Source of the DNA: an uncultured Chloroflexia bacterium
GTDB taxonomy: Bacteria; Chloroflexota; Chloroflexia; Thermomicrobiales; UBA6265
Direction: 5' to 3'
NCBI GenBank assembly: GCA_963762985.1
Contig: CAVXMK010000014.1
Location: 282,625-346,624, forward strand
DNA: 64,000 bases
This document shows, in pieces, positions 2,008 through 47,914 of the stretch (position 1 is its first letter; each line of letters opens with the position of its first letter). The position numbers were made by a program, and so were the translations under genes. The notes below the pieces were generated by a model. That model did no database searches. It was given only the letters and a program-made list of their open reading frames with translations, and was not told the DNA's origin.

Positions 2008-3792
2008 ATGGACCAGTCGTCGTTCGACGAGTTAACACGTGTGCTTGGCGGAGCCGCATCGCGACGTCGTGCCCTGGGCGCGGTCATTGCCGCGGCGCTT
2101 GCCGGGAGAACGGCCGCGGAAATCATGGCCGCGCCCAGGAAGAAAGGCCGTGGCAAGGGCAAGGGTAAGGGCAAGAAAAAGAACAAGGGCCAGGGGAATA
2201 CTGGCAACGGGAATGACAATGGCAAGGGTAGCTGCGCCGGCTCGCCGCTGAGGCCCGGTCAGGACTTCCTGCGCTGCGATTTCTCCGGTCGAAACTTGCG
2301 GGGGCAGGATCTCCACTCCTCGTCGTTCAAGGATGTCGACTTTTCGTTCGCCGATCTCTGCGGCGTCGACTTTCACTCGGCGAGCTTCACCGAGACGGAC
2401 TTTATCGGAGCCAATCTCACCGACGCGAACTTCGACCAGTCCTCGCACGACGAAGTCAGCTTCGCCGAGGCGAATCTCGAAGGCGCCTCCTTCAAGGTGG
2501 CGACCTTCAGTGAGGTCGATTTCTCCGGGGCCAATCTCGCCCGCGCCAATTTCCGTGGCGCGACGCTCGACGAGGTCGATTTCTCCGGCGCTACCTTCTG
2601 CCAGACGATTCGGCCTGACGGCAGCACCGACAACCGCAATTGCGATATCTGCGACAACCTCTGCGGCACCTGCCAGAACTGCGACGAGGAGGACTGCGAA
2701 GCCCCCGACTGCTGCTCCGACCCGGAGACGGGCGACGGGGTATGCGTCGATACCGACACCGATCCACTGCACTGCGGAGCGTGCGGCGTGGCGTGCGGAG
2801 CCTCGTTGAACCCGTGCATCACCATCGAGTGCATCGATGCTGCATGCACCCCCGTCGAGGCCGCGGACGGCACGACCTGCGAGGAGGGCGAAGAGGCTGG
2901 CGTCTGCTGCGCCGCGGGCGATACGGTCACCTGCGTCGTCGGCGGCATCTGCTGCTCCAGCGCGCAGTGCGATGAGGGCGATACCTGCTGCAGCGGGCAG
3001 TGTGTCGATCTCCAGACCGATCCTGACAATTGCGGTGGCTGTGGCCCCGAGTTTGCCTGCGACGCAGGCGAAACCTGTTCCCAGGGCCAGTGCGTGTCGG
3101 ATGAGTGCGACAGCGGCGAAGTCCTCTGCGACAGCGTCTGCACGCCGGGCGTCTGCTGCGCGGATGACCAGTCCGGGCCGCAATGCCCCGCGGGGTTCAC
3201 CTGCATCGCCGGCGGCTGCGTCGGCGAGGGGCAGTTCCGCTTCGTGCTCAGGTGGGACGAGAACCCGCGGGATCTCGACACCCACGTCTGGTTGCCGCCA
3301 GCGACGCCGTACCACATCTATTTCGTCGACGAAGGCAGACTGGACCAGTTCCCCTTTGCGGAGCTGGACATCGACGACGTGACGAGTTTCGGTCCGGAAA
3401 CCGTCACGATCGCCCAATTGTTCGAGGGAACGTACCTCTACGCCGTGCACCTGTTCGCCGGCACGGGCACCATCGGCACGTCGGGCGCCGTGGTCGAGGT
3501 CTACGAGGGTGCGAACCTGGTCAACACCTTCCCTGTTCCCACGAACCTCTCCTGGGATCCGGACAACGGCCAGAACGTCTGGTGGAACGTCTTCAGCCTC
3601 ACCGTCGACGGGCAAGGGGACACGACGATCACCCCGATCAACACCGCCTCGGCGGATCCCGCGCCGTTCCCGGATACGCTGTCGCGTCGCGCCAGCGCCG
3701 AAAAATCCAAAAAGCCGGCCGATGGCGACCGCAACCGCAAGCGCGGCCGAGGCCGTGGCAAGGGCAAGAATCGGGGTCGTGCGCGGCGGTGA
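2008..3792 (+). CDS. Secreted multidomain protein: RR leader, polybasic tail, pentapeptide repeats, Stig1-like Cys modules, YfaP/DUF2135-like C-terminal domain, basic C-tail
   Basis: ATG at 2008 is preceded by GGGGGAG. Leader is MDQSSFDELTRVLGGAASRRRALGAVIAAALAG and the tail is KKGRGKGKGKGKKKNKG. A(D/N)LxG/F pentapeptide runs are present, along with the motif C-V-D-x-D-T-D-P-L-H-C-G-A-C-G-V-A-C. Start chosen inside track ORF 1930..3792. Confidence 0.85.
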   Translation: MDQSSFDELTRVLGGAASRRRALGAVIAAALAGRTAAEIMAAPRKKGRGKGKGKGKKKNKGQGNTGNGNDNGKGSCAGSPLRPGQDFLRCDFSGRNLRGQDLHSSSFKDVDFSFADLCGVDFHSASFTETDFIGANLTDANFDQSSHDEVSFAEANLEGASFKVATFSEVDFSGANLARANFRGATLDEVDFSGATFCQTIRPDGSTDNRNCDICDNLCGTCQNCDEEDCEAPDCCSDPETGDGVCVDTDTDPLHCGACGVACGASLNPCITIECIDAACTPVEAADGTTCEEGEEAGVCCAAGDTVTCVVGGICCSSAQCDEGDTCCSGQCVDLQTDPDNCGGCGPEFACDAGETCSQGQCVSDECDSGEVLCDSVCTPGVCCADDQSGPQCPAGFTCIAGGCVGEGQFRFVLRWDENPRDLDTHVWLPPATPYHIYFVDEGRLDQFPFAELDIDDVTSFGPETVTIAQLFEGTYLYAVHLFAGTGTIGTSGAVVEVYEGANLVNTFPVPTNLSWDPDNGQNVWWNVFSLTVDGQGDTTITPINTASADPAPFPDTLSRRASAEKSKKPADGDRNRKRGRGRGKGKNRGRARR

Positions 3793-3857
3793 GCCGACCG
3801 CGAGGCCATCGCCCCGCGCCTGCTCGATGACATAGCAGGAAGGCGACAGATCTGCCA

Positions 3858-3887
3858 CGAGGCCCGGGGAATGTTCCCCGGGCCTCG
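3858..3887 (+). terminator. Terminator-like hairpin shared with the paralog
   Basis: CGAGGCCCGGGGA-ATGT-TCCCCGGGCCTCG, a perfect 13-bp stem with no T-tract. An almost identical hairpin follows the paralog at 9097-9125. Confidence 0.6.
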
Positions 3888-4349: not shown

Positions 4350-5858
4350 GTAAGAGTTCAGACCAAGGCAATTTGGGGAGATGGTCGTGGGGCGCGCAGG
4401 AGCGCGAGAAACTCCTCGACCGGGTCGAGGTCGCGCAGGGCCCAGGTGGCCACCAGCGAGTGCAAGAGCATGCGGGTGGTGCTGCCCGGCCCCGAGCGGG
4501 TGCCGCCGCTAATCTTGCGCGCCACCACCAGCGGGCGCAGGGCGCGCTCGGCGGCATTGTTGGTCGGGGGCACGGCCGGATCGGCGACGAAGGTGAACAA
4601 CTCGGCCTGATAGCGTTCGACGCGGGCGCACAGCACCGCCTGCGGGGTATCGGCCGGTTGCGCCCGGCAGTGGGCGACGAGCTCGGCCTGGAAGCGGTCG
4701 CGCGCCCGCTCGCGCAGGATGCCGTTCGTGCCCGCCGCCGTCGCCTCCGCCGCCCAGGCCACGGCGCGGTCGTAGACATCGCGCACCCCCGCCGCCCACG
4801 CCGCCACCCCCGGGTCGTCGGGATGGGCCAGGACCAGGTCATGGATGTCGCGCCACAGGTGCGCCCAGCACCGCTGCTGGACCCGCTCCAGCCGGTCGTA
4901 GGCCCCGAAAAAGTCGCTGACCACCACGCCCGTGCCCATCTCGCCCAGGAGGTCCTGCGCCACCGCCCCGGCGCGACTGCGCGCGAAGTGAAACACCTGG
5001 ATCGAGGGCGTGGTCAGCGTCCACACCCAGCCGGTGCGGCCGTTCTCGCGCCAACTCGTCTCATCGAGATGGACGACCGGGCTGGCCCGCGCCTCCCCCA
5101 GCAGCGCCTCGTAGGCCGGGCGTCCGGCCCGCGCCGCCTCCGCCAGCAGCGCGCTCAGCTCCCCCACCGACAGCCGCAGCCCCCAGACCCGCTGCAGCAG
5201 CCATTGCACCTGGGCCAGCGGCAGCCGCAGTTTGGTGCGCAGCGTCGCGACCCACGCCGCCACCGACCACCCCACCCGCCGGTGGGCGCCGGCCTGCTCC
5301 CCCAGATCCGGCATCGTCCCCCGGCTGCGCGTCCCGCAGCGGCGGCAGGTCCGCTCCAGCACCCGGTGCTCGACGACCGCAGCCCGCACCGGCGGCACCT
5401 CGATGAGCTGGCGGCGCCGCACCACCCGTCCCCGTGCCAGCGGGGCGGCACAGGCCGGACAGACCCTCGGCGCGTGCAGCACGATGCGGTCCGGACGCTC
5501 ACGGCGGCGCCCCGGCACGGGACGGCGCGGTCGCCGCGGCCGGCGCTGCTCGCGCACGACGACATTGGCCTTGACCCACGCGGGCGGACGTTTGGGCGGG
5601 GGAGCTGCGGGCGGCGACGGCCTCGCGCCCGCCTGGCCCCCCGCCGCGTGGTCGTCACCGCGCAGCGCGGCCACCTCGGCCCGCAGCGCGGCGTTCTCCG
5701 CGCTCAGTGCCTGCACCTGGGCCTGCAACTGCACCACCAGCTCCGCCAGTGCGTCGTAGCTGAGCCGCTCCGTGCCGCGGGTCATCTCCCGCCCCTTGCC
5801 CGTCCCTGCCGTGAGAACCGGCATTCTCCCACAATTTCGGGTCAGTCTGAACTCTTAC
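4350..5858 (-). mobile_element. IS66-family insertion sequence, single-ORF type, apparently intact (1509 bp)
   Basis: Perfect 14-bp terminal inverted repeats GTAAGAGTTCAGAC (4350-4363 and reverse complement 5845-5858). Subterminal similarity (..AATT.G.GGGAG), an 8-bp TSD and one complete transposase ORF. Confidence 0.9.
4358..5824 (-). CDS. IS66-family transposase
   Basis: N-terminal leucine-zipper-like LQAQVQALSAENAALRAEVAALR and zinc-finger CPACAAPL..CRRCG. Also HLDETSW, VVSDFFGAYD, QRCWAHLWRD and PPTNNAAERALRPLVVARK, all hallmark IS66 motifs recalled from memory. Confidence 0.9.
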   Translation of the reverse strand: MPVLTAGTGKGREMTRGTERLSYDALAELVVQLQAQVQALSAENAALRAEVAALRGDDHAAGGQAGARPSPPAAPPPKRPPAWVKANVVVREQRRPRRPRRPVPGRRRERPDRIVLHAPRVCPACAAPLARGRVVRRRQLIEVPPVRAAVVEHRVLERTCRRCGTRSRGTMPDLGEQAGAHRRVGWSVAAWVATLRTKLRLPLAQVQWLLQRVWGLRLSVGELSALLAEAARAGRPAYEALLGEARASPVVHLDETSWRENGRTGWVWTLTTPSIQVFHFARSRAGAVAQDLLGEMGTGVVVSDFFGAYDRLERVQQRCWAHLWRDIHDLVLAHPDDPGVAAWAAGVRDVYDRAVAWAAEATAAGTNGILRERARDRFQAELVAHCRAQPADTPQAVLCARVERYQAELFTFVADPAVPPTNNAAERALRPLVVARKISGGTRSGPGSTTRMLLHSLVATWALRDLDPVEEFLALLRAPRPSPQIALV

Positions 5859-5866
5859 CCTGCGAA
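5859..5866. repeat. Target-site duplication, right copy (CCTGCGAA)
   Basis: Identical to 4342-4349 and abuts the IS right end. Confidence 0.85.
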
Positions 5867-5894
5867 ATGGGCTGTCCTCAGTCCAGTGTTACCC

Positions 5895-5904
5895 GTGATA
5901 CGAT
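5895..5904 (+). promoter_or_regulatory. Candidate extended -10 promoter box (GTGATACGAT), paralog copy
   Basis: Same box and the same following GATGG-GGCCA..CACCGC.AGCGCC block as at 1873. The IS end lies only 37 nt upstream. Confidence 0.4.
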
Positions 5905-6034
5905 GATGGCGGCCATGCACCGCAAGCGCCGGGTCCGTGGGGAAGACGGACCGCGCGGCCAGGGGATGTGAGCCGGAATGTCGCGCGACGCGCGGCGCCG
6001 CCTCCGTTGGGACGGGTAGGGGGAGCGTATCCAG

Positions 6035-9000
6035 ATGGACAACGCTGCATTCGACCGGTTGGCGCGACTGCTGGGGAGCGGCGCGTCGCGGCGCCACACG
6101 TTGCGCGCGCTGATCACCGCGGCCCTGGTCGGGGGCACGGCCGACGAGCTGCTGGCCAAAGACAAGAAGAACCGCGCCAAGAACCGCAAGCAGGGCAACG
6201 ACCGGGACGGCAACAACGACAAAGACAAAGATAAGAACAAGGACCGGCGCAATGGCCGTGGCGGCCAGGCCAATGCCGAAGCGAAAAAGAAAAATCAGAA
6301 CAAGAACAAGCAGAAGCGCAAGAAGAAAAAGAAGAAGAACAGCAACGGCGGCAATAGCGGCGGCAACAGTTGCGCCGGAACCCCGCTGCAGCCCGGGCAG
6401 GACTTCGTCGATTGCGATTTCTCCGACGCCAATCTGCGCGGGGAGAATCTCAAAGGCTCCCTCTTCAAGAATGTCGACCTCACCGATGCCGATCTCTGCG
6501 GCGCCGATCTGGAATCGTCCAGCTTCGCCGACACTACACTGGTCGACGCCAATCTCACTGACGTCAACCTCGACTCGTCGTCGCACAGCAAGGGCGACTT
6601 CTCCGGCGCCAACCTCACCAACGCCACCTTCCGTGTCGCCACCTTCAGCAAGGTCGACTTCTCGGGAGCCGACCTCACCGGCGCCGACTTCACCGGCGCC
6701 ACCCTGGATGACACCGACTTCGCCGGCGCCGTCTTCTGCCGCACCATCCATCCCAACGGCAACGTCGACAACCGCGACTGCGACATCTGCGACAACGAGT
6801 GCGGTCTCTGCGAAGACTGCGACGACGAGGACTGCACCCCGCCCGACTGCTGCCCGAACCCGGAGGGACCAGGCGGCATCTGCGTCAATACCGACACCGA
6901 CCCGCTCAACTGCGGCGGCTGTGACGCCGCCTGCTTCACCAACCTGTCCAACGCCTGCGTCGATGGCGAGTGCGTCTGCGGCAACGAGCCGGAGTGCTCC
7001 GGTGGCGAGACCTGCTGCCGTGGCGAGGGCGGTGGCGCCACCCGCTGTATCGACACGGACACCGATCCCCTGCACTGCGGCGCCTGCGACGAGGCGTGCC
7101 TGATCCCCCTCAACCCATGCCTCTCCGTCGAGTGTCAGGGCGGTCAGTGCGTCGAAGTCGGCGCCGCGGACGGGACGCCCTGCGAACTCGAGGGCGACCC
7201 TGGCGTCTGCTGCGCCGCCGGCAGCTCCGTCACCTGCGTCGTCGGGACCGAATGCTGCTCCAACGCCCAGTGCGACTCCGGCGAGGCCTGCTGCGAAGGG
7301 CAGTGCATCGACGTCGAGGACGACCCCAACAACTGTGGCGGCTGCGACGTCATCTGCCTGACCCCGACAAACCCGTGCCTCACCAACGAGTGCATCGAGG
7401 GCGGATGCGTAGACGGGACGCTCTCGGACGGCACGGAGTGCGCGTTCGTTGACGACACCGGCGTCTGCTGCGCCTCGGGTGGGACCAGCACCTGCGTCTT
7501 CGGCGCTGAGTGCTGCACCGATGCGCAGTGCGGCACGGGCCAATCATGCTGTGGCGGCCAGTGTCTGAACACCCAGACCGACTTCGATCGCTGCGGGTCA
7601 TGCACCAACCAATGCCCGGCTACCAAGGCCGACGCCTGCGTTGGCGGGGACTGTGTCTGCGGCGAGGAGCCGGAGTGCAACGGCAACCAGACCTGTTGCC
7701 CCGGCGAGGGCGGCAATCCGGCCTCCTGCCTCAACCTCAATAACGACACCCTCAACTGCGGCGCCTGCGGATTCGCCTGCCTGATCCCAACGAACCCGTG
7801 CCTCGCCGTCGAGTGCCAGGAGGGCGGATGCGTCGAGGTGCCCGTACTGAATGGCTCGGCCTGCGCGGTGGGCGAAGTGGGGGGCATCTGCTGCGCCTCG
7901 GGCGAGACGTCCGCCTGCATCGTGGGGGCGGAATGCTGCGACAGCTCGGTCTGTGAGGCGACCGAAGCCTGCTGCGAAAATCAGTGCATCGACGTTCAGG
8001 ACAACTTCGACAACTGCGGTGAGTGCGGCAACAGTTGCACGGACTCGGTGAATCAATGTTTCCACCGCGACTGTGTCCAGGGCGAGTGCCAAACCCTCCC
8101 CGACGAGGATGGCGAGCCGTGCTTCGCGGGCGAAGAGGGCATCTGCTGCGCCTCGACCCCAACCACCTCCATCTGCATCGGCGGCGGCCAGTGCTGCACC
8201 GACCTCGAATGCCCGGAGGGCGATAGCTGCTGCGATAACACCTGCTTCGAGACCAGCTCCGATTTCGACCACTGCGGGGGCTGTGACGGCTGCGACCCCG
8301 ACTTGGCAGACACCTGCGTCGAGGGCACGTGCGTCTGCGGGACCACGGGAGCCGCATGCGGGGCCGGCGAGACCTGCTGCAACGGCCAGTGCGTCGACAC
8401 CGACACCGACACCGACAACTGCGGCACGTGCGGCAACGCCTGCGATCCCCCGTTGAACTCGTGCAATACCGTCCTGTGCCTCGAAGGTACGTGCAACAAC
8501 TTCGCGGACCCCGACGGCACGATCTGCGTGGAGGGTCAGGACGAGGGCGTCTGCTGCTTCGACGACAACGCCGCCGTCTGCCTGGCGGGCGCCCAGTGCT
8601 GCTCCGACTCCGGATGCGACGTCACCGAAGCCTGCTGCGACAACCAGTGCGTCAACCCCAATACCGACTTCGACCACTGCGGCATTTGCACGAACGCCTG
8701 CATAGAGGGGAAGGCCGACGCCTGCTTCAACGGCCAGTGCGTCTGCGGGTCCGAGTTCCAATGCTCGGAAACCGAGACCTGCTGCAACGGCCAGTGCGTG
8801 GACACCAGCAATGATCTTGAGAACTGCGGCTCCTGTGGCGAGACATGTGGTGCAAACGAAACGTGCGTCGAGAGCGGGTGCGTTTGCCCGGGCATCCCCT
8901 GCGAGGGTCAATGTCTGGCGGAAGGTCCCGACGTCTGCTGCCTCCTCGCCGACTGCGAGACTCGCCTCTGCTATTTGCTTCTCGGCTGCAACGGCAACGT

Positions 9001-9088
9001 CTGCGAATACCAACAGCTCGCCGACAACACCGATTGCGGCTTCGGCGGTACGTGTGAAGGCGGCGTGTGCATCGGGCAGTCTGAATAA
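6035..9088 (+). CDS. Giant secreted Cys-rich protein: RR leader, about 75-aa polybasic tail, pentapeptide repeats, about 10 Stig1-like Cys modules
   Basis: Leader MDNAAFDRLARLLGSGASRRHTLRALITAALVGG. Tail is KDKKNRAKNRKQG...KKKNQNKNKQKRKKKKKKNSNGG. The pentapeptide block is collinear with the 2008 paralog. The motif D-x-x-(N/H)-C-G-x-C-x-x-x-C occurs about 12 times. GGGGGAG precedes the ATG. Confidence 0.9.
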   Translation: MDNAAFDRLARLLGSGASRRHTLRALITAALVGGTADELLAKDKKNRAKNRKQGNDRDGNNDKDKDKNKDRRNGRGGQANAEAKKKNQNKNKQKRKKKKKKNSNGGNSGGNSCAGTPLQPGQDFVDCDFSDANLRGENLKGSLFKNVDLTDADLCGADLESSSFADTTLVDANLTDVNLDSSSHSKGDFSGANLTNATFRVATFSKVDFSGADLTGADFTGATLDDTDFAGAVFCRTIHPNGNVDNRDCDICDNECGLCEDCDDEDCTPPDCCPNPEGPGGICVNTDTDPLNCGGCDAACFTNLSNACVDGECVCGNEPECSGGETCCRGEGGGATRCIDTDTDPLHCGACDEACLIPLNPCLSVECQGGQCVEVGAADGTPCELEGDPGVCCAAGSSVTCVVGTECCSNAQCDSGEACCEGQCIDVEDDPNNCGGCDVICLTPTNPCLTNECIEGGCVDGTLSDGTECAFVDDTGVCCASGGTSTCVFGAECCTDAQCGTGQSCCGGQCLNTQTDFDRCGSCTNQCPATKADACVGGDCVCGEEPECNGNQTCCPGEGGNPASCLNLNNDTLNCGACGFACLIPTNPCLAVECQEGGCVEVPVLNGSACAVGEVGGICCASGETSACIVGAECCDSSVCEATEACCENQCIDVQDNFDNCGECGNSCTDSVNQCFHRDCVQGECQTLPDEDGEPCFAGEEGICCASTPTTSICIGGGQCCTDLECPEGDSCCDNTCFETSSDFDHCGGCDGCDPDLADTCVEGTCVCGTTGAACGAGETCCNGQCVDTDTDTDNCGTCGNACDPPLNSCNTVLCLEGTCNNFADPDGTICVEGQDEGVCCFDDNAAVCLAGAQCCSDSGCDVTEACCDNQCVNPNTDFDHCGICTNACIEGKADACFNGQCVCGSEFQCSETETCCNGQCVDTSNDLENCGSCGETCGANETCVESGCVCPGIPCEGQCLAEGPDVCCLLADCETRLCYLLLGCNGNVCEYQQLADNTDCGFGGTCEGGVCIGQSE

Positions 9089-9096
9089 CTCTCCAT

Positions 9097-9250: not shown

Positions 9251-9957
9251 GCCCCGCCCGTTCGCTGATGTCCAGATTCCCCCGGCTTTTCCTCCAGAGT
9301 GACACAACGCGGCACGACGCTGTAAGTAACTTCGGCGTACGTACGTCCAATATTTCTGAGGGTGTCCTATTTTGGCCTCCTCAATCCGTCTTTAGAGGTA
9401 GAGGGGGCAGCACACCGCGCCGGATCCCGTCGGCCCCCGGCGCCATCTGCCCCTGGCCCGCGCCTGACGCCCCAGGCGCGGTGCCCGCCGCGGTCCCCCG
9501 CACCCCGCCCCGAGATCGGCCATCTCGCTCCGGGCTCGCGGGCTTCCCCGCGCGGCCTGTCCGCTATCCGCGTCGACACGACCCTGCGCTGACCGTGCAG
9601 CACACCGGCACGACCGATCCTCCGCCAGCTCATCTCCGGCGTCGGCCGCACCCCCTGTGCGGCCCCGCACTCCCCGGCCTGTCGCGTACAGGCGCCGCCC
9701 AGGGCGTTGGGCAGCGGGGGGGTCCGGCGGTCCTGGCGGGGCCGGCGGCCCCGAACTGCATCCGAGGTCTGCCCCTCCTGGGCCCCGCTCCGCATGGAGT
9801 GGACCCAAGGGGGATCTCGTCATGCCCGCAAAACCTCACCCGAGCTCCGCCATCCCCTGGCCCGAACGGGAATGATGAGCGGCGGGTTGACGCCCACCGG
9901 CAGACTCCTTACTCTCCAGCACCATGCACCCCATCCACGCGGCAATACCACCCCCCA

Positions 9958-10020
9958 TCACCCTATGACCCCATCACCCTGTCACCCTAACACCCTAACA
10001 CCCTATCACCCTCCACCCCC
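9958..10020. repeat. Tandem 8-nt array (CACCCTNN, about 8 units) abutting a start codon
   Basis: CACCCTAT GACCCCAT CACCCTGT CACCCTAA CACCCTAA CACCCTAT CACCCTCC ACCCCC, then ATG at 10021. Confidence 0.75.
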
Positions 10021-10692
10021 ATGACTGACCGCCCCCCCCTCCAACCCGGCCTCGATGCCCTCGCCACCGTCGAGGCCGCCGCCGTCACCCTCCTCGGCGT
10101 CGCCCGCCAACGCGGCCTCGATGGCGACCTCGACGTCGGCGAAGACGCCGTCGTCGTCCTTCGCGCCGCCCAGTGCCAGGACGAGCAGCACTACCACGCT
10201 CTGCTCGCCGCCGGCGGCCTCCCCGTCGCGGAAAACTTCACCATCCCGGAGGAAACCGTCACCGACCGCACCCTGCTCCTCGTCGCCATCCTCGAGCTGA
10301 AGGCCATCGGCATCGCCGGCTACATGGCCCTCGCCCGCGCCTGGGCCGCGCGGCGCGAGACGGAGCAGGTCGAAATCGCCTACGCCATGGGCATCGTCGA
10401 GGCCCAGCACCTGACGCTGGCCCACGCCCTCGTCGGCGTCACCCCCGCCAACGACCGCGCCTTCGCCCGCTGGCTCTTCGCTGACCCCGCCGAAGCCCTC
10501 GCCGCCCTGCAAGCCCTCGCTTTGCTGGAAGGCCCCGGCGACCCCGTCCCCTTCCCCGGCCCCCTCGACCGCGTCTGCCGCGGCGTCTTCGGTCTCACCC
10601 CGGAGACCACCGCCACCATGACCCTGCCCCGACCCCCGGTTGGAGAAGCCGCCGTGCCCCAGGGACCGCGGGTGATAACCGGGGACGGCTAA
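10021..10692 (+). CDS. Hypothetical protein, possibly ferritin-like four-helix domain
   Basis: Codon-plausible 223-aa ORF. Helical segments (LLLVAILELKAIGIAGYMALA, IAYAMGIVEAQHLTLAHAL) loosely resemble ferritin-like/DUF4439-type proteins. No SD is visible because the octamer array sits directly upstream. Confidence 0.45.
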   Translation: MTDRPPLQPGLDALATVEAAAVTLLGVARQRGLDGDLDVGEDAVVVLRAAQCQDEQHYHALLAAGGLPVAENFTIPEETVTDRTLLLVAILELKAIGIAGYMALARAWAARRETEQVEIAYAMGIVEAQHLTLAHALVGVTPANDRAFARWLFADPAEALAALQALALLEGPGDPVPFPGPLDRVCRGVFGLTPETTATMTLPRPPVGEAAVPQGPRVITGDG

Positions 10693-10764
10693 TCGCCTCG
10701 ACCCCCCGGAACTTCAACATCTTCAACACCTTCCGACAACCACGCCAAAATCCGATACGAGTAA

Positions 10765-10826
10765 GCCCCCCTCGCCCTGCGCACAGGGCCGGGTGCCCTC
10801 TGGGCGGCGGGGTTGGGGGGTGAGGC
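10765..10826. repeat. Copy of the AAGCCCC..GGGCCGGGTGCCCTCTGGGCGGCGG..GGGGTGAGG element
   Basis: Core GGGTGCCCTCTGGGCGGCGG at 10791-10810. The same core occurs at 15668, 19729 and 57207, and in reverse complement at about 57106-57125. Confidence 0.7.
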
Positions 10827-10971
10827 CGATCCACCGGTCCCGAAGTCATCACCAGCGGAGACTGATTCCGCCGCCCCTATTGTGACGACGCGTTCCGCCC
10901 CCTACACTCTTGAACGAAAGAAGGCAGGACTCAGCGACTCGCGGCCGGGTCTCGCGGGGGTGGCTGGCGGC

Positions 10972-39214: not shown

Positions 39215-39248
39215 GGAGCCGTACAGGGGCAATTCCCGTGCCAGAGGG

Positions 39249-39368
39249 GCTATGGGCTATGAGCTATGGGCCATCAGTCCTTGGCTCTCGACTACCGGTT
39301 CGCTGGGTCCTTGTCGCCGCGCTGTCTGAATCCGTAAGCTAATAGCCAATAGCCCATAGCTCATAGCT
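39249..39368. repeat. Opposed 7-nt arrays (GCTATGG/GCTATGA)n ... (AGCCCAT/AGCTCAT)n with a spacer of about 65 nt
   Basis: Left array 39249-39272 and right array 39337-39368. At least 15 nt are perfectly complementary (GCTATGAGCTATGGG / CCCATAGCTCATAGC). Lies in a divergent promoter region. Confidence 0.75.
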
Positions 39369-39384: not shown

Positions 39385-41823
39385 GTGTCGCGTAAACCGC
39401 GTGCCCATTCCCAGGATCCGCAGGCAGCCCCGGCTCCGGACCAGGCGGCCCTGGCGCCGGCCGCACCGTTGCCAGCGCCACTCGCGCCCCTCGTCGGCCG
39501 GGACGGTGACATCGCGGCCGTGCGGGACTTGCTGCGGCGCGACACCGTACGCCTGGTGACGCTGACCGGTCCCGGCGGTGTTGGCAAGTCGCGCCTCGCC
39601 CTGGCCGTCGGCGCGGCGGTGGCGGATGCGTTCGCCGACGGGGTGCGCCTGGTGCGGCTGGCGGCCATCACCGATTCCAATCTGGTCGTGCCCACCATCG
39701 CCTCCACACTCGGCTTGCGCGACCCGGGCGGTCAGCCATCGCTGGCGGCCCTGCAAACCGCGTTGCGCGACCGCGAGATGCTGCTGATCCTGGACAACTT
39801 CGAGCAGGTTCTCGCCGCGGGCGCAGACCTGGCCGATCTGCTGCGCGCCTGCCCCGGCCTCAAGGCGCTGGTCTCCAGCCGCGCCCGGTTGCGGCTGCGC
39901 GGCGAGCACGTCGTCCCGGTCGCGCCCCTGGCCGTCCCTGAGGCGGATGCGGTCCTCGATAGCGTCACCGCTCTCGCCTACCCCGCGGTCGACCTGTTCG
40001 TGCAACGGGGGCACGAAGCGCGTGTCGACCCCCTGCGCTCGCCGGAGGACATCGCCGCCGTGGCCGGCATCTGCCGTCGCCTGGACGGTCTCCCCCTCGC
40101 CCTCGAGCTGGCGGCGGCGCGGCTGGACATCCTCCCCCCGCCCGCGTTGCTGGAGCGGCTCGGCCTCACATTGCCCCTCCTGGTGGACGGTCCCCGCGAC
40201 CTGCCCGACCGCCTGCGCACGATGCGCGACGCCATCGCCTGGAGCTACGACCTGCTCGAACCGGAAGATCAAACCATCTTTCGCCAACTGGCCATCTTCG
40301 CCGGCGGGTTCACCCTGGACGCGGCCGAGTGGGTGTCGGGGCTCGGGTCTGAGGTATCAGGGATGGCCCCGCACAGCCAAGCCCCATACCCCGACACCCG
40401 GCACCCGGCACCCGAGACCCTCGATGGCGTCGCGGCACTGGCGGAAGCGGCCCTGCTGCGGGTCGACACGCCCAGCGACGCCGCGCCGCGCTACCTGATG
40501 CTCGAAACCGTCCGCGAGTTTGGCCTGGAGCAACTGATCGTCAGCGGTGAAGACGATGATGTTCGCCGCGCGGCACGCGGCCTGGTGTCTGTCCCTGGCC
40601 AAGCGGGCCGAACCCGAGTTGCTCGGCCCGGAGCAGCGCTCGTGGACCGAGCGACTGGAGCAGGAGCACGCCAATTTCCGCGCCGCGCACGCCTGGCTCA
40701 CCCAGCAGGGCGACGCCGAATCGGCGCTACGGCTGGCCGGCGCCCTGTGGGTCTTCTGGTTCCTGCGCGGCCACCTGCGCGAAGGCTACGAATGGCTGAT
40801 GCAGGCGCTGGCCATCGACGGCGAGGCGCCACCGGCCGACCGCGTCCAGGCGCTCTGGGGGGCCGGTATGCTGGCCTGGGCCCAGGGCGATTTCGGACGC
40901 GCCGAAGCACTCGGCCGGCAGACACGGGCGCTCGCCGAGCAGCATCAGCTTGTCTTCGGTACGGCGTCGGCGCTCTATCTCCTCTTCCTCGCCATCGAGA
41001 TGCAGGGCCGCTCGGAGGAAGCCATCGCCCTGGGCGAAGCGAGCGCGGCGCGCATGCGGGAGGCGGGAGCCCGCGCCTGGCTGGCCTACGTCCTCGGCGA
41101 TGTGGGGACGCGCCTGCTGGTGGAGGGGAGGCGCGAGCAGGGCGAGGCCTGGATCGAGGAAGGTCTTGCCCTCCATCGGCGAGCTCGGCAACAAACAGGG
41201 GATCGGCAACAAGCTCAACGACCTCGGGGTGGTCAGCCAGCAAGCGGGCGACGTGCAGACCGCGGCGCGGCAGTTCGCGGAGAGTCTGCGCTGGTTGGTC
41301 GAGGGTGGCGACGCCTGGTTCCTGGTCAGCCCCATCGAAGGACTCGCCGCCATCGCCGTCCATGCTGGCCAGGCGAGACCCGCGGCGCGGCTGCTGGGAG
41401 CGGCCTCCGCGCTGCGGGAATGGAGCGGCGGCGCTTTCTGGCCGTTCGAGCGCGAGCGCCTCGATCGGTCCGTGACCGCCGCGCGGGCCGTCCTGGGCGA
41501 CGAGATCTACACCCGCGAGGTCGCCGCCGGCCGCGCCCTCCCCATCGCCGACGTGGTGGAAGAGGCAACCGCGCTTGCGGACCTGCCTCTGACTGCCGAG
41601 GCCGTCGCTGCCGCCCCCGCCCACCGATCCCTTCGGCCTGTCGCCCCGCGAGCTGGACGTGCTGCGGCAGCTCGCCGCCGGCAAATCGAACCCCGAGATC
41701 GCCGAGGCCCTCTACATCGGCCGCGGCACCGTACGCACCCACGTCTCCAACATCCTGACCAAGCTCGACGCCCGCACCCGCACCGAAGCCGCCCTCATCG
41801 CCCGCGACCGCGGCCTGGTGTAG
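39385..41823 (+). pseudogene. LuxR-family regulator (AAA ATPase - TPR - LuxR HTH) carrying three +1 frame disruptions
   Basis: Frame A holds Walker [12 protein letters not shown] through ..[12 protein letters not shown]. Frame B (ORF 40547) covers [32 protein letters not shown]. Frame C (ORF 40950) covers [25 protein letters not shown]. Frame A resumes with [47 protein letters not shown], stop at 41821-41823. Confidence 0.75.
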
Positions 41824-42333: not shown

Positions 42334-43449
42334 ATGGTCGCCGTCATTGCACCGCTCGAACTTCAGGCCGATGCCGTGGCCCGCCGCGATGCGCTGGCGG
42401 AACGCCTCTTTCAGGCGACGCTCGCCACCTGGGATATCGCCACCGTTTTCCTCGGTCACCGCCTCGGGCTCTACCAGGCGCTCTCCGAGGTGGAACCCGC
42501 CACCTCGGCCGAGGTCGCCGCGGCGGCCGGTCTGGCCGAGCGCTACACCCGCGAATGGCTGGAGCAGCAGGTCGTGACCGGCATCCTCACCTGCGAAAAC
42601 CCGAGCGCCCCGGCCGCCGATCGCCGCTACGTTATCCCGGCAGGCCACGAGGTGGTCCTCATCGACGTCGACGATGCGAACTACCTCGCCCCGCTGCCGC
42701 AGATCGTCGTCGGCGCCCTGCACCCGCTACCAGCGCTGCTCGGCGCGTTCCGCACCGGGGCCGGGGTCCCCTACGCCGACTACGGACTCGACCTGCGCGA
42801 CGGCCAGGCGGGGATGAACCGCAACCTGTTCCTGCAATCGCTCGGCAACGAGTACCTGCCGGCCATCGACGACCTGCACGACCGCCTCCTGGCCGATCCC
42901 CCCGCCCGCGTCGCCGACATCGGCTGCGGCGTCGGCTGGTCTTGCGTCGGCATCGCCCGGGCCTACCCGAACGTCATCGTCGACGGGTTCGACCTGGACG
43001 AGGCTTCCGTCGCCGCGGCCCAGGATGTCATCCGCGAAGCGGGCGTGGCCGATCGCGTCGACGTGCTCCTGCGCGACGCCGCCGCTCCCGACCTGGCCGG
43101 CCGCTACGACCTGGTCACCGCCTTCGAATGCGTCCACGACATGAGCGACCCCGTCGGCGCGCTGCGCACCATGCGCCGCCTCGCCGGCGAGAATGGCACG
43201 GTCCTCGTCATGGACGAGCGGGTCGCCGATACCTTCGACCCGGAGGCCGGCGACGTGGAGCGCTTCATGTACGGCTTCAGCGTGCTGCACTGCCTCCCGG
43301 TTGGCCTGGAAGAGCGCCCTTCGGCGGCGACAGGCACCGTCATGCGCGCCGGCACCCTGCTGGGCTATGCCGCGGAGGCCGGCTTCCAGCAGGCGGACGT
43401 TTTGCCCTTGGAGCACCCCTTCTTCCGCTTCTACCGCCTGAGCGGGTAG
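42334..43449 (+). CDS. SAM-dependent methyltransferase with N-terminal winged-helix-like domain
   Basis: VADIGCGVGWSCVGIARAY (motif I), DLDEASV, DLVTAFECVHDMSDP, NGTVLVMDE. Confidence 0.85.
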   Translation: MVAVIAPLELQADAVARRDALAERLFQATLATWDIATVFLGHRLGLYQALSEVEPATSAEVAAAAGLAERYTREWLEQQVVTGILTCENPSAPAADRRYVIPAGHEVVLIDVDDANYLAPLPQIVVGALHPLPALLGAFRTGAGVPYADYGLDLRDGQAGMNRNLFLQSLGNEYLPAIDDLHDRLLADPPARVADIGCGVGWSCVGIARAYPNVIVDGFDLDEASVAAAQDVIREAGVADRVDVLLRDAAAPDLAGRYDLVTAFECVHDMSDPVGALRTMRRLAGENGTVLVMDERVADTFDPEAGDVERFMYGFSVLHCLPVGLEERPSAATGTVMRAGTLLGYAAEAGFQQADVLPLEHPFFRFYRLSG

Positions 43450-43462
43450 TTCGCCGACCCGT

Positions 43463-43487
43463 TGGGCGGCGGTGAACCCGCCGCCCA
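43463..43487 (+). terminator. Terminator-like hairpin
   Basis: TGGGCGGCGG-TGAAC-CCGCCGCCCA, 14 nt after the methyltransferase stop. No T-tract. Confidence 0.5.
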
Positions 43488-43619
43488 CGGCCGACCGGCT
43501 ACCGCGGGCAGAACTGATTGCGCTGATTTCTCGCGCGATTGCGCGTGGGCTGGGGATTCGTGCGCTCGACAGAACCGCGTTCCAGCGTGGCACCGAATCG
43601 CCCATGGGAAGGAATACCG

Positions 43620-44807
43620 ATGAACGACGCACGTTTCGCCACCCTCATCCGCGCCCTGACGGGTGGGGCGGTGACCAGGCGTACGCTTGGCCAGGGCCTC
43701 GCGGGTGGCGCCATCGCGGCCGGTCTTGCCCAGTTCAGGTTGGACACCATCGGCGCCAGGCGCCGGAAAAAGAAGCGAAAGAAAGGCAAGGGCAAGAAGC
43801 GGCGCGGCGGCGGCAATGGCGGCGGGAACAGCGATCGTTGCCAGTTCGAGATCTGCGAAGGGGCGTGCGTCGATCTCGACACTGACGCGAACAACTGCGG
43901 CGCCTGCGGCGACGCCTGCCCGGACGGTTCGCCCTGCGTTGGTGGCTTGTGCGCGTTCGCCGCCGGCGGGGAAGGCGACGGAGAAGGCGAGTTCGACCGG
44001 CCATTCGGCATCGCATTCGACAGCAACGGATTCGGCTACGTCGCCGACGCCAACAACCGGCGTGTCCACCGATATTTGGTTGGCGATTTCTTTGGAACGT
44101 TCGGCGAGTTCGGTGAAGGCGACGGGCAATTCTTGCGGCCAATCGGCGTGGCGGTCGTGAACGAGACCGGCGAAGTCTTCGTTAGCGACTCCGATCTCAG
44201 CCGGATCCAGAAGTTCGACGCGAACGGCGACTTCCTGCTCGGCTTCGGGAACTTCGGCAACGGCTCCGGTCAGTTCAAGAACCCGCTCGCGCTGGCCTTC
44301 GACCAACAGGCGAACCAAGTGTTCGTGGCCGACACGAACAACCACCGCATCTCTCGCCTCAGCGCCACGCTCTTCCCCCTGGAGCGGTTCGGGCAATTCG
44401 GCAGCGGCGAGGGCCAGTTCAACGGCCCGCAAGGCATCGCCATCGACGCGAATCGAAACATCTTCGTGGCCGACACCGGGAACAACCGCATCCAGGTCTT
44501 CGACCTGCGGCGGGAATTCGTGCGGGCGTTCGGCGAGCAGGGCGCCGGGCCGGGGCAGTTCAACGGGCCGACCGGCGTGGCGGTCGATGACCAGGGGAAT
44601 CTCTTCGTCGTCGACACCGGGAACAACCGCATCCAGCAGTTCTCGGTCGATGGGACGTTCCGCAAAACCTTTGGCCGCGCCGGCACCGGGCTCGGCGAGT
44701 TCGACGAGCCGTTCGGCATCGGGATCGACGGCAGCGGGTTCCTCAATGTCGTCGATACGAGGAATGAGCGCGTGCAGTTCTTCATCCCGGCGCGATTCCT
44801 CGACTGA
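43620..44807 (+). CDS. Secreted NHL-repeat beta-propeller protein 1 (RR leader, polybasic tail, one Stig1-like Cys module, six NHL blades)
   Basis: GGAAGGA precedes the ATG. MNDARFATLIRALTGGAVTRRTLGQGLAGGAIAAGLA, then IGA|RRRKKKRKKGKGKKRRGGGNGGGN, then CVDLDTDANNCGACGDAC. Blades such as FNGPQGIAIDANRNIFVADTGNNRIQVF. Confidence 0.9.
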   Translation: MNDARFATLIRALTGGAVTRRTLGQGLAGGAIAAGLAQFRLDTIGARRRKKKRKKGKGKKRRGGGNGGGNSDRCQFEICEGACVDLDTDANNCGACGDACPDGSPCVGGLCAFAAGGEGDGEGEFDRPFGIAFDSNGFGYVADANNRRVHRYLVGDFFGTFGEFGEGDGQFLRPIGVAVVNETGEVFVSDSDLSRIQKFDANGDFLLGFGNFGNGSGQFKNPLALAFDQQANQVFVADTNNHRISRLSATLFPLERFGQFGSGEGQFNGPQGIAIDANRNIFVADTGNNRIQVFDLRREFVRAFGEQGAGPGQFNGPTGVAVDDQGNLFVVDTGNNRIQQFSVDGTFRKTFGRAGTGLGEFDEPFGIGIDGSGFLNVVDTRNERVQFFIPARFLD

Positions 44808-44862
44808 TCGCGGTTGGAGGCGCCCACGGGCGCCCCGATGTCGGAAGCCTCAGGAGGACATT

Positions 44863-46095
44863 GTGGAGACAACGCCATTAGCCAATCTCGTGCGCGTCGT
44901 CATGGATGGCGTCTATACGCGGCGCGGCCTTGGTCAGCGGTTCAGCTCTGCTGCGCTCGCTTCCGCGCTTGCCCTGACGGTGGAAGACATCGACGCCCGC
45001 CAGCGCGGCGGCAAGAAGCGTCGCCGAAAAAGGAAGAAGCGCGGCGGCAACAACGGCGGTGGGAACGACCGCTGCCCATTCGAGCGCTGCGGAGGGCAAT
45101 GTCTCGACCTCGACAACGACCCAACCAACTGCGGAGCGTGCGGGCGCGCATGCGACATGGACGCCGTCTGCGTCGCCGGCTTCTGCGCGGTCGCCGCTGG
45201 CAGCCGCGGCAGCGGCGGCAAGCAATTCGATGGGCCGTTCGGCGCCGGCGTCACAAGCGACGGTCTCGTCCTCGTTGCGGACTCGAACAACCGGCGCATT
45301 CAGATCACCGGCGGCGGCAGCTTCTTCGGTTCGTTTGGCGAGTCCGGCGAAGGCGACGGGCAGTTTCTGGACCCGGCGGGCGTGGCGGTCGGCCCGGGGA
45401 CGGAAATCTACGTGACCGACATTGCGCGCCACGACATTCAGCGTTTCGGCTCCGGTCAACGATTCGATGTCGGGACGGGCGGGTTCGGCTCCGAACTGGG
45501 CCAATTCAACACCCCGACAGGCGTCGCCGTCGACCAAGCCACCGGCGAGGTGTGGGTCGCCGACAGAAACAACCACAGCCTTCAGGTGCTCAGCGCCGAC
45601 CTCGTCGCGCGCCGGCGGATCGGTCGTCTCGGGAGCGGCGACGGCGAGTTCAACGAGCCGTTCGGGGTCGCATTCGACGACGTCAACGGTCACGTCGTCG
45701 TGGCCGACAGCGCGAACAACCGCATCCAGATCCTCGACCGGGAGGGGCGCTTCGTCCGCGCGTTCGGCCGCCAGGGGACCGGGAACGGCGAGTTCGACAT
45801 CCCGGTGGCGCTCGCGCTCGACACGGCCGGGGACATCTTCGTGGTGGACCTCTTGAATGACCGGGTCCAACAGTTTTCCCCCGAGGGAACGTTTCGCAAG
45901 GCGTTCGGCCGAACCGGGAGCGGAATCGGCGAGTTCAGCCTGCCGGTCGGCATCGCCATCAGCTCGCGGGACGTCATCACCGTCGTCGATCAAGGCAACG
46001 ACCGCATCCAGGTCTTCGTCCCGGCGGGGTCGGACTTCGAAGCCCAGTCTCGCGCGAAGCGTCGGTGCCAAGGGCGCCAAGGAGTTGAGAGATGA
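44863..46095 (+). CDS. Secreted NHL-repeat beta-propeller protein 2
   Basis: GTG at 44863 lies 5 nt after AGGAGG. VETTPLANLVRVVMDGVYTRRGLGQRF.., then IDA|RQRGGKKRRRKRKKRGGNNGGGN, then CLDLDNDPTNCGACGRAC, then six NHL blades. Confidence 0.85.
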   Translation: METTPLANLVRVVMDGVYTRRGLGQRFSSAALASALALTVEDIDARQRGGKKRRRKRKKRGGNNGGGNDRCPFERCGGQCLDLDNDPTNCGACGRACDMDAVCVAGFCAVAAGSRGSGGKQFDGPFGAGVTSDGLVLVADSNNRRIQITGGGSFFGSFGESGEGDGQFLDPAGVAVGPGTEIYVTDIARHDIQRFGSGQRFDVGTGGFGSELGQFNTPTGVAVDQATGEVWVADRNNHSLQVLSADLVARRRIGRLGSGDGEFNEPFGVAFDDVNGHVVVADSANNRIQILDREGRFVRAFGRQGTGNGEFDIPVALALDTAGDIFVVDLLNDRVQQFSPEGTFRKAFGRTGSGIGEFSLPVGIAISSRDVITVVDQGNDRIQVFVPAGSDFEAQSRAKRRCQGRQGVER

Positions 46096-47345
46096 GACAT
46101 GCACGGTTCGATTCGCTGGTCCGTGAGTTGGCGGCTGGTTCGCTCACGCGCCGCGGCGTCGCTCAGGGGTTCGGCGGAGCGGTGTTGGCCTCCACACTTG
46201 CCCTGACTGGCTTGGCCGAGACCGAGGCCAAGCGGCGTCGTGGGAAGAAGCGTCGCAAAAAGAGAGGCAGCACGCGCCGCGGCGGCAACGACCGTTGTCA
46301 GTTCACTCGCTGCGACGGGCGGTGCGTCAACTTCGAAACCGACCCGGACAACTGCGGCGCCTGCGGCGACGCCTGCCCGGACGATCTGCCGTGCGTCGCC
46401 GGCCTCTGCGTGCTCGCGCTCGGCGGTCCCGACGATGATTTCGCCGGCCTCGGTAGCCCGGGCGGCGTCGCCGTGAACGCCGATGGGGTCGGCGTGGTCG
46501 CGGACAGAACCAACGAGCGCATCTTGCGCTTCCAGCGCGGCGAGCGGATCGAGTTCCTCGGCTCGTTCGGCGAGCGCGGCGAGGAAGACGGCCAGTTCCT
46601 GGAGCCGTCCGGCGTGGCGATCGACGGCGACGCCATCTTCGTGACCGACGCCGACCGGCACCGCATCCAGCGCTTCGACCTCCAGGGGAATTTTGAAGCA
46701 GCGGGCGGGAGCTTTGGCTCCGGGCTCGGGCAATTCGATTCCCCGCAGGGCATCGCCATCGATCCCCCGACCGGTGAGCTGTTCGTGGTCGATACGTTCA
46801 ACCACAGCGTGCAGCGGCTCGCCGCCGACTTCTCGCCGCTGAGCCGGATCGGACGCGAGGGCAACGGGAACGGCGAGTTCAGCTTTCCGTCCGGGATCGC
46901 CATCGACGGCGACGGCGACCTGGTCGTGGCCGATGTCCTCAACCACCGCATCCAGGTGCTCGACCGCGACGGGAACTTCATTCGCGCCTTCGGCCGCCGA
47001 GGGGACGGCGCCGGCGAGTTCAACGAGCCGCTCTCCGTGGCGGTCGACGCGGCCGGCGACATCTTCGTCGTCGATAACCAGAACCGCGGCATCCAGCGCT
47101 TCACCGGCGACGGGCAGTTCGTCAAGACGTTCGGCCGCCAGGGAACGGGGGTGGGTGAGTTCGAGTTTCCGTTCGGCATCGCCGTCGATTCCCTGGGGAT
47201 CATCACCGTCACCGATGTGGGAAGCCACCCCCTCCAATTGTTCTTCCCGGCGAACGTCTTCGCGGCGGGAGAAGGGATCGCAACCGCGAAAGATGAACTG
47301 CTCGGGGACCGTCCCGCGAGGAAGCAACGAAGGAGGACATCGTGA
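46092..47345 (+). CDS. Secreted NHL-repeat beta-propeller protein 3
   Basis: ATGA start/stop overlap with the previous gene. MRHARFDSLVRELAAGSLTRRGVAQGF.., then TEA|KRRRGKKRRKKRGSTRRGGN, then CVNFETDPDNCGACGDAC, then six NHL blades. Confidence 0.9.
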   Translation: MRHARFDSLVRELAAGSLTRRGVAQGFGGAVLASTLALTGLAETEAKRRRGKKRRKKRGSTRRGGNDRCQFTRCDGRCVNFETDPDNCGACGDACPDDLPCVAGLCVLALGGPDDDFAGLGSPGGVAVNADGVGVVADRTNERILRFQRGERIEFLGSFGERGEEDGQFLEPSGVAIDGDAIFVTDADRHRIQRFDLQGNFEAAGGSFGSGLGQFDSPQGIAIDPPTGELFVVDTFNHSVQRLAADFSPLSRIGREGNGNGEFSFPSGIAIDGDGDLVVADVLNHRIQVLDRDGNFIRAFGRRGDGAGEFNEPLSVAVDAAGDIFVVDNQNRGIQRFTGDGQFVKTFGRQGTGVGEFEFPFGIAVDSLGIITVTDVGSHPLQLFFPANVFAAGEGIATAKDELLGDRPARKQRRRTS

Positions 47346-47914
47346 ACGCATCCCATTTCGGCGATTTTGCTCGGGTGCTGACGGACGGCGCGATCACGCG
47401 GCGGGCGGTCATGCGGGGCATGGCCGGGGCGCTTGGCGCGGCTGGGCTATCGCATGCGGGATTGACCAGTCTCCAAGCCAAAAAGGGTAAGCGGCGCAAG
47501 CAACCATCGCCGGTGAACCGGTTCGGCTGCCGCAACGTCGGTGTCGCGTGCTCGAGCGCCAATCAGTGCTGCTCCGGCATCTGCGAGGGCGGGCGCGGTA
47601 AGGACAAGAACGGCAAGAAGCGGAGAAGGACGTGCCGGGCGCACGACACGGGGGGCTGCAAGGTTTCCCAGGATTCCTGCTCGACGAGCACGAACTTCAC
47701 CTGCACCACGATCACCGGTGAGGCAGGATTCTGCCACCTGACCACCGGCAACGCCCCCTACTGTGCGTTCGATGGGATTGATTCGGAGTGCACGAGGGAC
47801 GAGGACTGCATTGACCTTTGCGGCCCCCAGGCGGCCTGCAGCGTCTGCGCCGAGCCGGGGTTGGCGGCGTTCCGCTTCTGCGCCGGTCCCAGCAGATGCG
47901 AAGGTTTTGCATGA
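47342..47914 (+). CDS. Secreted knottin-like Cys-rich protein with the same leader and polybasic tail
   Basis: GTGA overlap with the previous gene, with GGAGG upstream. VNASHFGDFARVLTDGAITRRAVMRGMAGALGAAGLS, then LQA|KKGKRRKQPS. Pattern C-x6-C-x5-CC-x3-C-x16-C with basic loop RGKDKNGKKRRRT, then a second Cys-rich half. Confidence 0.8.
   Translation: MNASHFGDFARVLTDGAITRRAVMRGMAGALGAAGLSHAGLTSLQAKKGKRRKQPSPVNRFGCRNVGVACSSANQCCSGICEGGRGKDKNGKKRRRTCRAHDTGGCKVSQDSCSTSTNFTCTTITGEAGFCHLTTGNAPYCAFDGIDSECTRDEDCIDLCGPQAACSVCAEPGLAAFRFCAGPSRCEGFA

Follow-up and report, generated by a model that had tools for sequence, protein, structure and literature searches.

A lysine- and arginine-rich tract behind twin-arginine leaders of a Thermomicrobiales-like Chloroflexota genome and its possible role as a surface anchor

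Genes with leader and tract in the window

The stretch of DNA analyzed here (the window) comprises 64,000 nucleotides of an uncultured Chloroflexia bacterium assigned to the Thermomicrobiales (contig CAVXMK010000014.1, positions 282,625 to 346,624). Eleven of its genes, all located on the plus strand, encode proteins in which a leader with a twin arginine (RR) ends in a small-x-Ala site and is followed by a tract rich in lysine and arginine, hereafter called the K/R tail. An earlier note on this DNA had quoted the eleven junctions, and all of them were reproduced by translation from the starts given there. GGAGG-like Shine-Dalgarno sequences, read by eye, are located 6-12 nt upstream of the start in 11/11 cases. 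In the following, the proteins are named after the first position of their genes.

Six proteins (2008, 6035, 43620, 44863, 46092 and 47342) possess an alignable leader of the type M-(D/N)-x-x-x-F-D-x-L-x-R-x-L-x-x-G-x-x-(S/T)-R-R and contain Cys-rich modules behind the tail. Protein 2008 (2008-3792) is a pentapeptide-repeat and Cys-rich protein with the leader at 2008-2130, the tail at 2131-2190 (APRKKGRGKGKGKGKKKNKG) and a second, C-terminal K/R tail at 3703-3789. Protein 6035 (6035-9088) combines pentapeptide repeats with 150 Cys residues; its leader (6035-6157) precedes a long K/R/N/D tail (6158-6340) with a net charge of +20, the remainder of the protein having a net charge of -143. An IS66-family transposase gene (4358-5824, minus strand) lies between these two genes. 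The three NHL propeller paralogs are encoded at 43620-44807 (leader 43620-43757, tail 43758-43811, followed by an GGGNGGGN spacer, a Cys knot and a six-bladed propeller), 44863-46095 (leader 44863-44997, tail 44998-45045) and 46092-47345 (leader 46092-46229, tail 46230-46292), the second and the third having a mildly basic C-terminus. The sixth protein, 47342 (47342-47914), is Cys-rich and has its leader at 47342-47479, its tail at 47480-47506 (KKGKRRKQP) and a second K/R tract inside the domain at approximately 47579-47662. Stig1- or MXAN_6577-like matches account for five of the six proteins, 46092 being placed by its alignment with the NHL paralogs, and 47342 is without a family match.

Four further proteins are encoded by a single tandem cluster (12393-14677) and are Gly-rich and partly collagen-like. 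The first is a short Gly/Pro protein with collagen-like GXY repeats (12393-12641; leader 12393-12533, tail 12534-12575, RRVRKRHRNRNHNR), followed by an acidic Gly/Ser/Ala-rich protein (12712-13815; leader 12712-12846, tail 12847-12894) with a single K/R in the remaining 306 amino acids. The third is a small Gly-rich protein (13911-14201; leader 13911-14048, tail 14049-14078, RRRGRKSKNR), and the fourth, Gly/Ser-rich (14249-14677; leader 14249-14386, tail 14387-14422, RRRRGRKGKGRH), has no K/R at all in its remaining 84 residues. The last of the eleven is a group I truncated hemoglobin (trHb) at 35108-35635 with a classical leader of the twin-arginine translocation (Tat) type (35108-35221) and a K-rich linker at 35222-35254 (KKKPSGKKKPS). 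In this protein the tail reported by the earlier note is present, but it is weak, with six K in 11 amino acids and seven K/R in 20. The description of the eleven proteins as unrelated had to be abandoned. Since six share the leader and Cys-rich modules, four form a tandem cluster and one is a trHb, the number of independent cases is about three, not eleven.

A twelfth gene of the leader family, missing from the earlier note, was detected on the minus strand at approximately 11803-12195. It encodes a small inhibitor cystine knot (ICK)-like, Cys-rich protein with an MDxxRFD...RR leader and the domain CRGVTSRCKRNGQCCSGRCRTRRGKKKGRC. A discrete tail is not present in this protein, its positive charge (K/R) being located inside the Cys domain. 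Judged by their Cys spacing (CX6CX6CCSGIC), this protein and 47342 appear to be knottin-like.

To judge the specificity of the tails, the base composition has to be considered. The GC content of the window is 65-70% and Arg-rich off-frame open reading frames (ORFs) are common there. Hence, K/R counts were limited to frames with a high GC content at the third codon position (GC3) and to Lys-containing tracts. A systematic scan of high-GC3 ORFs for RR plus an uncharged hydrophobic core (h-region), with a threshold of 12 residues instead of 13 that was needed to catch 2008 and 6035, recorded the best K+R count per 15 amino acids. Window proteins with an RR leader were regarded as tailed if this count was at least seven and as untailed if it was at most two. 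The distribution behind RR cores proved to be bimodal, with 7-13 K/R in the eleven listed proteins and 0-2 in the untailed ones, which are 23787, a beta-lactamase family protein (27965-29584, minus strand), the ferritin-like protein 33147 and an SBP_bac_5 protein (58300-60012, minus strand). Five untailed RR-leader proteins had been claimed previously. These four bear out the claim, while the RR leader of the fifth, encoded by the PQQ-like gene (29618-30820, minus strand), could not be verified; its N-terminus, ...PRARRAALAARDYG..., is not a convincing leader.

Lys-containing polycationic tracts in high-GC3 frames, triaged by hand with obvious off-frame noise set aside, are essentially confined to eleven post-leader positions, one C-terminus (2008) and one domain interior (47342). 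A rough binomial estimate, in which the figure of approximately 14 tracts is a hand count, gave P ~2e-19 for the chance that at least 11 of them lie within 15 amino acids of one of approximately 15 RR h-regions. The K:R ratio is 65:59 in the tails versus 49:260 in ten ordinary genes of the window at 68% GC. Both this ratio and the bimodal K/R count agree with the earlier statement that the tail was added specifically and does not reflect a general habit of composition. The Lys enrichment of the tails runs against the GC/Arg bias, and synonymous codons are mixed. Short tandem DNA repeats overlap only 2/11 tails (2008 and 6035), and a simple microsatellite origin was therefore rejected. Off-frame artefacts were rejected because the frames have a high GC3, and wrong start codons because the leaders are conserved at the protein level down to 34% identity. 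A credible case of leader plus tail was not found in 80 control loci (1.28 Mb, many phyla); these loci originate from a contig scan with the full NHL alignment, whose patterns are dominated by the NHL repeat, and represent generic propellers without the leader.

The leader family and conservation of the tail

To detect further proteins with this type of leader, a profile of 46 positions that excludes the tail (alignment A6) was searched against 1.84 billion cluster representatives and recovered 673 protein clusters at E<=1e-3. The consensus of the best 150 clusters is MDxxRFDxLTRxLAxGxSRRxLLKGLxGxAxGGLLAxxGL-[DE]-[DE]-A-x-A, and the payloads among these 150 are overwhelmingly Cys-rich, often with a CX6CX5-6CCSGXC motif and K/R-rich domains. 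Of these 150, 114 had at least 40 mature residues and were usable for statistics. Within the first 20 mature residues, the net charge was at least +7 in 51/114 members (approximately 45%) and at least +3 in 85/114, and position +1 was occupied by K or R in 60/114. The leader alone, used as query in a word-indexed search of 5.8e9 sequences, yielded four matches, this query being too short for such a search, and tblastn against plasmids gave no relevant match. On a 23-kb metagenome contig (L097, GC 0.66), five Cys-rich genes with leader and tail are located within 14.5 kb (1281-1670, 5275-6555 on the minus strand and 9540-10914), three of them lying in tandem as paralogs that share the junction EADAKRRKKNKRRRKKKKHK...PFCAGK; the region around the five genes contains an HTH_17/MerR-like gene and numerous small ORFs without annotation.

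The closest homologs of the NHL propellers in the databases are only 43-55% identical. Nevertheless, all homologs with full coverage (17/17) retain this arrangement, from the leader and the Ala that directly precedes the charge through a tract such as RKRKKKRKKKGKGK and a spacer of the GGNDGGG type to the Cys knot and the propeller. A46, R49 and K51 are nearly invariant in the alignment. AlphaFold2, applied to the NHL alignment, predicted the Cys knot and the propeller behind the tail with confidence; residues 1-71 had pLDDT values below 50 and comprised two leader helices, then coil across the tail. Homologs of 47342 were sampled from 11 mostly short metagenome contigs, which sufficed to test conservation but was too small a sample for statistics on proteomes. 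In 9/10 of these homologs (34-68% identity), AxA and the first Cys are separated by a K/R tract, although the tracts show no conservation of sequence. The succession of methyltransferase, NHL, 47342-like and alpha/beta-hydrolase genes is shared with loci on metagenome contigs of 129 kb and 138 kb. The 47342 ortholog at a metagenome locus retains a KNRRKRKRRH tract, and the pentapeptide and Cys-rich protein encoded there has AEKRRGKGKRNRRRGKG. In all three regions (window 42334-48875; L081 6779-12314; L082 8714-12799) the first gene encodes an Rv2258c-like HTH_65 methyltransferase, and the window has three copies of the NHL gene. One might speculate that this cytoplasmic methyltransferase modifies the Lys-rich exported proteins encoded beside it.

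The position of the tract between leader and spacer is the usual place of a pro-peptide, and K/R runs are classical protease sites. It is therefore conceivable that the tract is a pro-region which a trypsin- or kexin-like protease cuts after export for activation or release of the protein. However, no protease gene is conserved beside these genes, and a single dibasic site would be sufficient for cleavage. Moreover, K/R tails are not tied to the cleavage site. They also occur at the C-termini of 2008 and of several NHL homologs, which have extra K/R-rich C-terminal extensions, and in the interior of 47342, where a processing function would leave them without explanation. A pro-region is thus very unlikely.

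A different picture emerged for the trHb family, in which nearly all of 120 homologs have a Tat leader; the named relatives are from a Thermomicrobiales bacterium (74% identity) and a Chloroflexi bacterium (70%). The K-rich linker is restricted to the four closest sequences (88-100% identity) and, independently, to a second clade (HKPGKKRKPGKKPS). In orthologs with 76-84% identity the leader is conserved, whereas the linker, of similar length, is neutral or acidic. It seems that the trHb tail was gained recently and twice in the family, and the second, independent gain argues for lineage-specific selection and not for drift. The trHb gene adjoins genes for a MarR regulator and the ferritin-like protein with a Tat leader (33147-35635), a trio that is conserved in a relative (L085, 9266-11550). 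An exported trHb family with more than 100 members seems to be unusual in itself.

The earlier note had named absence of the tail from orthologs as a sign of neutral low-complexity drift. Such an absence was not seen in the NHL and 47342 families, but it was partly seen in trHb, namely in the orthologs at 76-84% identity. This absence, the free variation of tail length and sequence between homologs and the short tandem DNA repeats in two tails would fit a functionless, disordered linker that expanded by replication slippage. On the other hand, charge and position of the tail are conserved down to 34% identity, Lys is enriched against a strong GC/Arg bias, the mixed synonymous codons do not form a pure repeat, the bimodal distribution goes along with a strict association with RR leaders, and the 1.28 Mb of control genomes contained no case. 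Neutral expansion is hence extremely unlikely. It looks as if the tail is under selection for its charge and not for its sequence.

Export signal and distribution of charge

The leaders have the features of Tat signals. RR is present in 11/11 window proteins (e.g. SRRRALG, TRRTLGQ, NRRRTLKG), R20 and R21 do not vary in the NHL alignment of 20 sequences, nor does RR in the leader alignment A6, and the family consensus is SRRxLLKGL. The h-regions consist of 12-23 uncharged residues with moderate hydrophobicity (maximal Kyte-Doolittle mean over 11 residues 1.4-2.4). At the small-x-small site, position -3 is occupied by A, V, T, G or L, and Ala at -1 is nearly invariant (A46 in the NHL alignment); in the count of 114 family members this Ala was fixed by the search expression and is not independent evidence. 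The c-region itself is acidic in the leader family, whereas the early mature residues are basic, the window tails having net charges of +6 to +20.

A flank behind the core that is far more positive than the n-region could also indicate a reversed signal anchor (N-out, C-in), in which the polybasic stretch would act as positive-inside determinant and the payload would stay in the cytoplasm, where pentapeptide proteins and hemoglobins are often found. This is highly improbable because the twin arginine is invariant and lies in an SRRxLLK context, the cores are short (12-21 Ala/Gly/Leu residues) and weakly hydrophobic and Ala is conserved at the predicted cleavage position of the NHL family. In addition, payloads with 8-150 Cys residues in Stig1/knottin-like modules are typical of extracytoplasmic proteins, and a basic flank is missing from the trHb orthologs that share the leader.

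The bodies behind the tails have net charges of -1 to -143, the only exception being 47342 with +1. All RR-exported proteins of the window carry approximately -8 to -10 charges per 100 amino acids, while the cytoplasmic ones are mostly near neutral. The exported proteins, e.g. 23787, 27965-29584, 33147, 58300-60012 and 34-1692, are almost Lys-free, which amounts to a markedly acidic exoproteome. This charge distribution is relevant to the possibility that the tract belongs to secreted Cys-rich effectors of the defensin or knottin type and targets the anionic surfaces of other cells. There is a precedent for a secreted toxin that homes electrostatically through a cationic segment (bioRxiv 10.1101/2025.07.24.666436), and leader-family payloads are mostly small and Cys-rich, often with CX6CX5-6CCSGXC and K/R-rich domains, and their genes are arranged in tandem in multiple copies (L097). 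Cationic Cys-rich antimicrobial peptides and knottins, with NF041328 (MXAN_6577-like) and PF04885 (Stig1-like) as related models, resemble them in Cys content, in the spacing CX6CX5-6CC and in their often K/R-rich payloads. However, the matches are below the NCBIfam cutoff and only some are above the Pfam cutoff. The same tail also precedes payloads that are not Cys-rich, being found on NHL propellers, pentapeptide and collagen-like Gly-rich proteins and a hemoglobin. As the payload bodies are mostly net acidic and toxin or immunity genes were not recognised nearby, a homing module is distinctly unlikely.

Positive charges at this position are known from signals that avoid the general secretory (Sec) pathway, and one to three charges are enough in the known cases. 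It is therefore conceivable that the tract mainly stops Sec threading, so that folded or cofactor-loaded cargo is exported by Tat only. According to PMC7317946, a basic c-region or a basic mature N-terminus blocks Sec transport, many positive charges C-terminal of a weakly hydrophobic helix cause its release by Sec, and "at least one" basic residue in the c-region is found in Sec-avoidance. Both of these Sec-blocking effects would support this explanation. Furthermore, tails are found exclusively behind RR leaders, beginning at +1/+2 relative to the predicted cleavage site, 85/114 family members have at least +3 in the first 20 mature residues, and the leaders of tailed window proteins are slightly more hydrophobic than those of untailed ones (approximately 2.0 versus 1.77), as predicted for Sec-avoidance, though n is tiny. 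By contrast, the charge of +6 to +20 is far above what is needed, the c-region proper is acidic and not basic, comparable K/R tracts exist at C-termini and within domains, trHb orthologs combine this leader with acidic linkers, and four RR proteins of the window are without a tail. Tail charge was not correlated with the hydrophobicity of the h-region either (rho -0.06, p 0.54, n=114), and the tract is followed by a Gly/Pro spacer as is found behind known surface anchors. Due to these properties, Sec-avoidance is probably not the selected function, and as the main explanation for the tails it is unlikely.

The tail as a possible N-terminal anchor

Of the three options offered by the earlier note, i.e. 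electrostatic retention on an anionic envelope polymer, extreme Sec-avoidance and processing, none is proven, but the evidence favours electrostatic retention over pure Sec-avoidance. It is tentatively proposed, on the basis of the sequences, that the tract is an N-terminal electrostatic anchor of strongly acidic exoproteins which at the same time obliges them to use Tat rather than Sec. The leaders would represent a lineage-specific family of Tat-type signal peptides in Thermomicrobiales-like Chloroflexota, here in a soil genome, with an extended n-region (M-D-x-x-R-F-D-x-L-x-R-x-L), RR in S-R-R-x-L-L-K-G-L, a weak Ala/Gly/Leu core and an acidic c-region (L-[DE]-[DE]-A-x-A). Cleavage at AxA would expose a Lys/Arg tract of 10-30 residues as mature N-terminus in roughly half of the leader family and, likewise, in some proteins of this genome with ordinary Tat leaders. 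A flexible Gly/Pro/Asn/Asp spacer and a strongly acidic folded or low-complexity domain would follow, and the tract would hold these anionic exoproteins on a putative anionic layer, which may consist of membrane head groups, a wall or sheath polymer, or matrix. Since a charge block of +6 to +20 directly behind the signal peptide should be incompatible with Sec, these proteins would have to use Tat, which would explain why tails are found only behind RR leaders. The exclusion of Sec would thus be a side effect of the tract, which would serve another end. In 35/51 highly charged family members a Cys-free tract precedes a spacer of 2-32 residues (25% Gly, 15% Pro), an arrangement that resembles an anchor plus a wall-spanning tether.

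Several observations weigh against the anchor. In the remaining 16/51 highly charged members the charge sits inside the Cys-rich domain, and N-terminal positive charge could therefore be selected for another reason. The four acidic RR-exported proteins without a tail imply that retention would be needed by a subset only, and the slightly more hydrophobic leaders of the tailed proteins fit Sec-avoidance. PF10518 (TAT_signal) remained below its cutoff. Only 35108 matched (18.8 bits versus 22.7), and the other nine scanned window proteins gave no match at E<=0.01, which is a weak negative as the Tat models (PF10518, TIGR01409) are very short. Tat genes were not recognised among approximately 30 window ORFs scanned. 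Cleavage at AxA and dependence on Tat are deduced from motifs, and surface retention presupposes an anionic binding polymer that is putative.

Comparison with known systems revealed similarities to several of them. Pfam and NCBIfam scans of ten window proteins (46092 not being among them) and ten leader-family members gave no match on leader or tail, and none of the literature searched describes this layout, in line with the earlier statement that it is not covered by a named signal. With Tat signal peptides (PF10518, TIGR01409) the leaders share RR within S/T-R-R-x-hydrophobic-L-K, a weak Ala/Gly core, small-x-Ala and positive charge behind the core, but they differ in the additional n-region motif MDxxRFDxLxRxL and the acidic c-region. 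Unlike in Sec-avoidance Tat signals, +6 to +20 charges are found in a discrete, disordered tract behind the cleavage site which is followed by a spacer, and the cutoffs of the curated models are not reached. In effect, the tract would be an extreme form of an early mature region that Sec does not accept. Cationic retention at the surface is known from Gram-positive bacteria and mycobacteria, e.g. the Lys-rich C-terminal domain of mycobacterial HBHA and the cationic cell-wall-binding regions of Lactobacillus S-layer proteins. There, too, a disordered Lys/Arg-rich segment is part of an acidic extracellular protein and is often located beside a Pro/Gly-rich spacer. By contrast, the segment described here forms the very beginning of the predicted mature protein, follows a Tat-type leader and belongs to Chloroflexota, and its binding partner is putative. 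In its layout the module is similar to a lipoprotein tether, with signal peptide, anchor at +1, flexible linker and folded domain, except that the anchor would be charge and not lipid. A lipobox Cys at +1 was found in 0/11 window proteins and 7/114 family members, and the C-termini of the window proteins lack an LPXTG or PEP-CTERM motif and a terminal hydrophobic segment. A match to scyF_NHL_VPEP covered the propeller only and was below the cutoff. LysM, SLH, GW, CWB2 and choline-binding Pfam domains were not detected in the 20 scanned proteins.

Elsewhere in the window, a sulfotransferase-family protein is encoded at 36537-38162 (plus strand). It could hint at sulfated, i.e. anionic, envelope or matrix polymers and would in this respect be relevant to an anchor. 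A bacterial type IB topoisomerase (Topoisom_I and Top1B_N_bact) is encoded at 20965-22017 (minus strand). Short perfect or near-perfect tandem repeats with units of 7-8 bp are located at gene boundaries (9953-10019, 19819-19854, 20895-20923, 20959-20986, 39247-39271, 40390-40420, 49699-49729 and 49776-49797), with units such as CCCTATCA (x7.5), CCCGTCAC (x4.6) and GCTATGG (x4.4).

The Lys-biased module is restricted to one lineage, in which it is real, conserved, widespread and unannotated; its role as an anchor is a prediction. It is possible, if doubtful, that leader, polycationic tract and Gly/Pro spacer together form a dedicated and previously unrecognised surface-display signal of Thermomicrobiales-like Chloroflexota. 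Such a signal would correspond to lipoprotein or sortase anchoring but would be based on charge and coupled to Tat, and the cell would use it to place acidic Cys-rich, propeller and collagen-like proteins on its envelope. In soils, Chloroflexota are abundant and, to our knowledge, the attachment of proteins to their unusual envelopes is poorly understood. The leader profile defines a searchable family of at least 673 clusters of unannotated, predicted small secreted Cys-rich proteins, to which annotation and signal-peptide predictors give no label at present. Leader and tail could serve as a tag for surface display or for export that excludes Sec. If the interpretation is correct, Tat would routinely move blocks of +10 to +20 charges and Cys-rich cargo, and a charge-based N-terminal anchor that forces export by Tat would be a new way to sort exoproteins.

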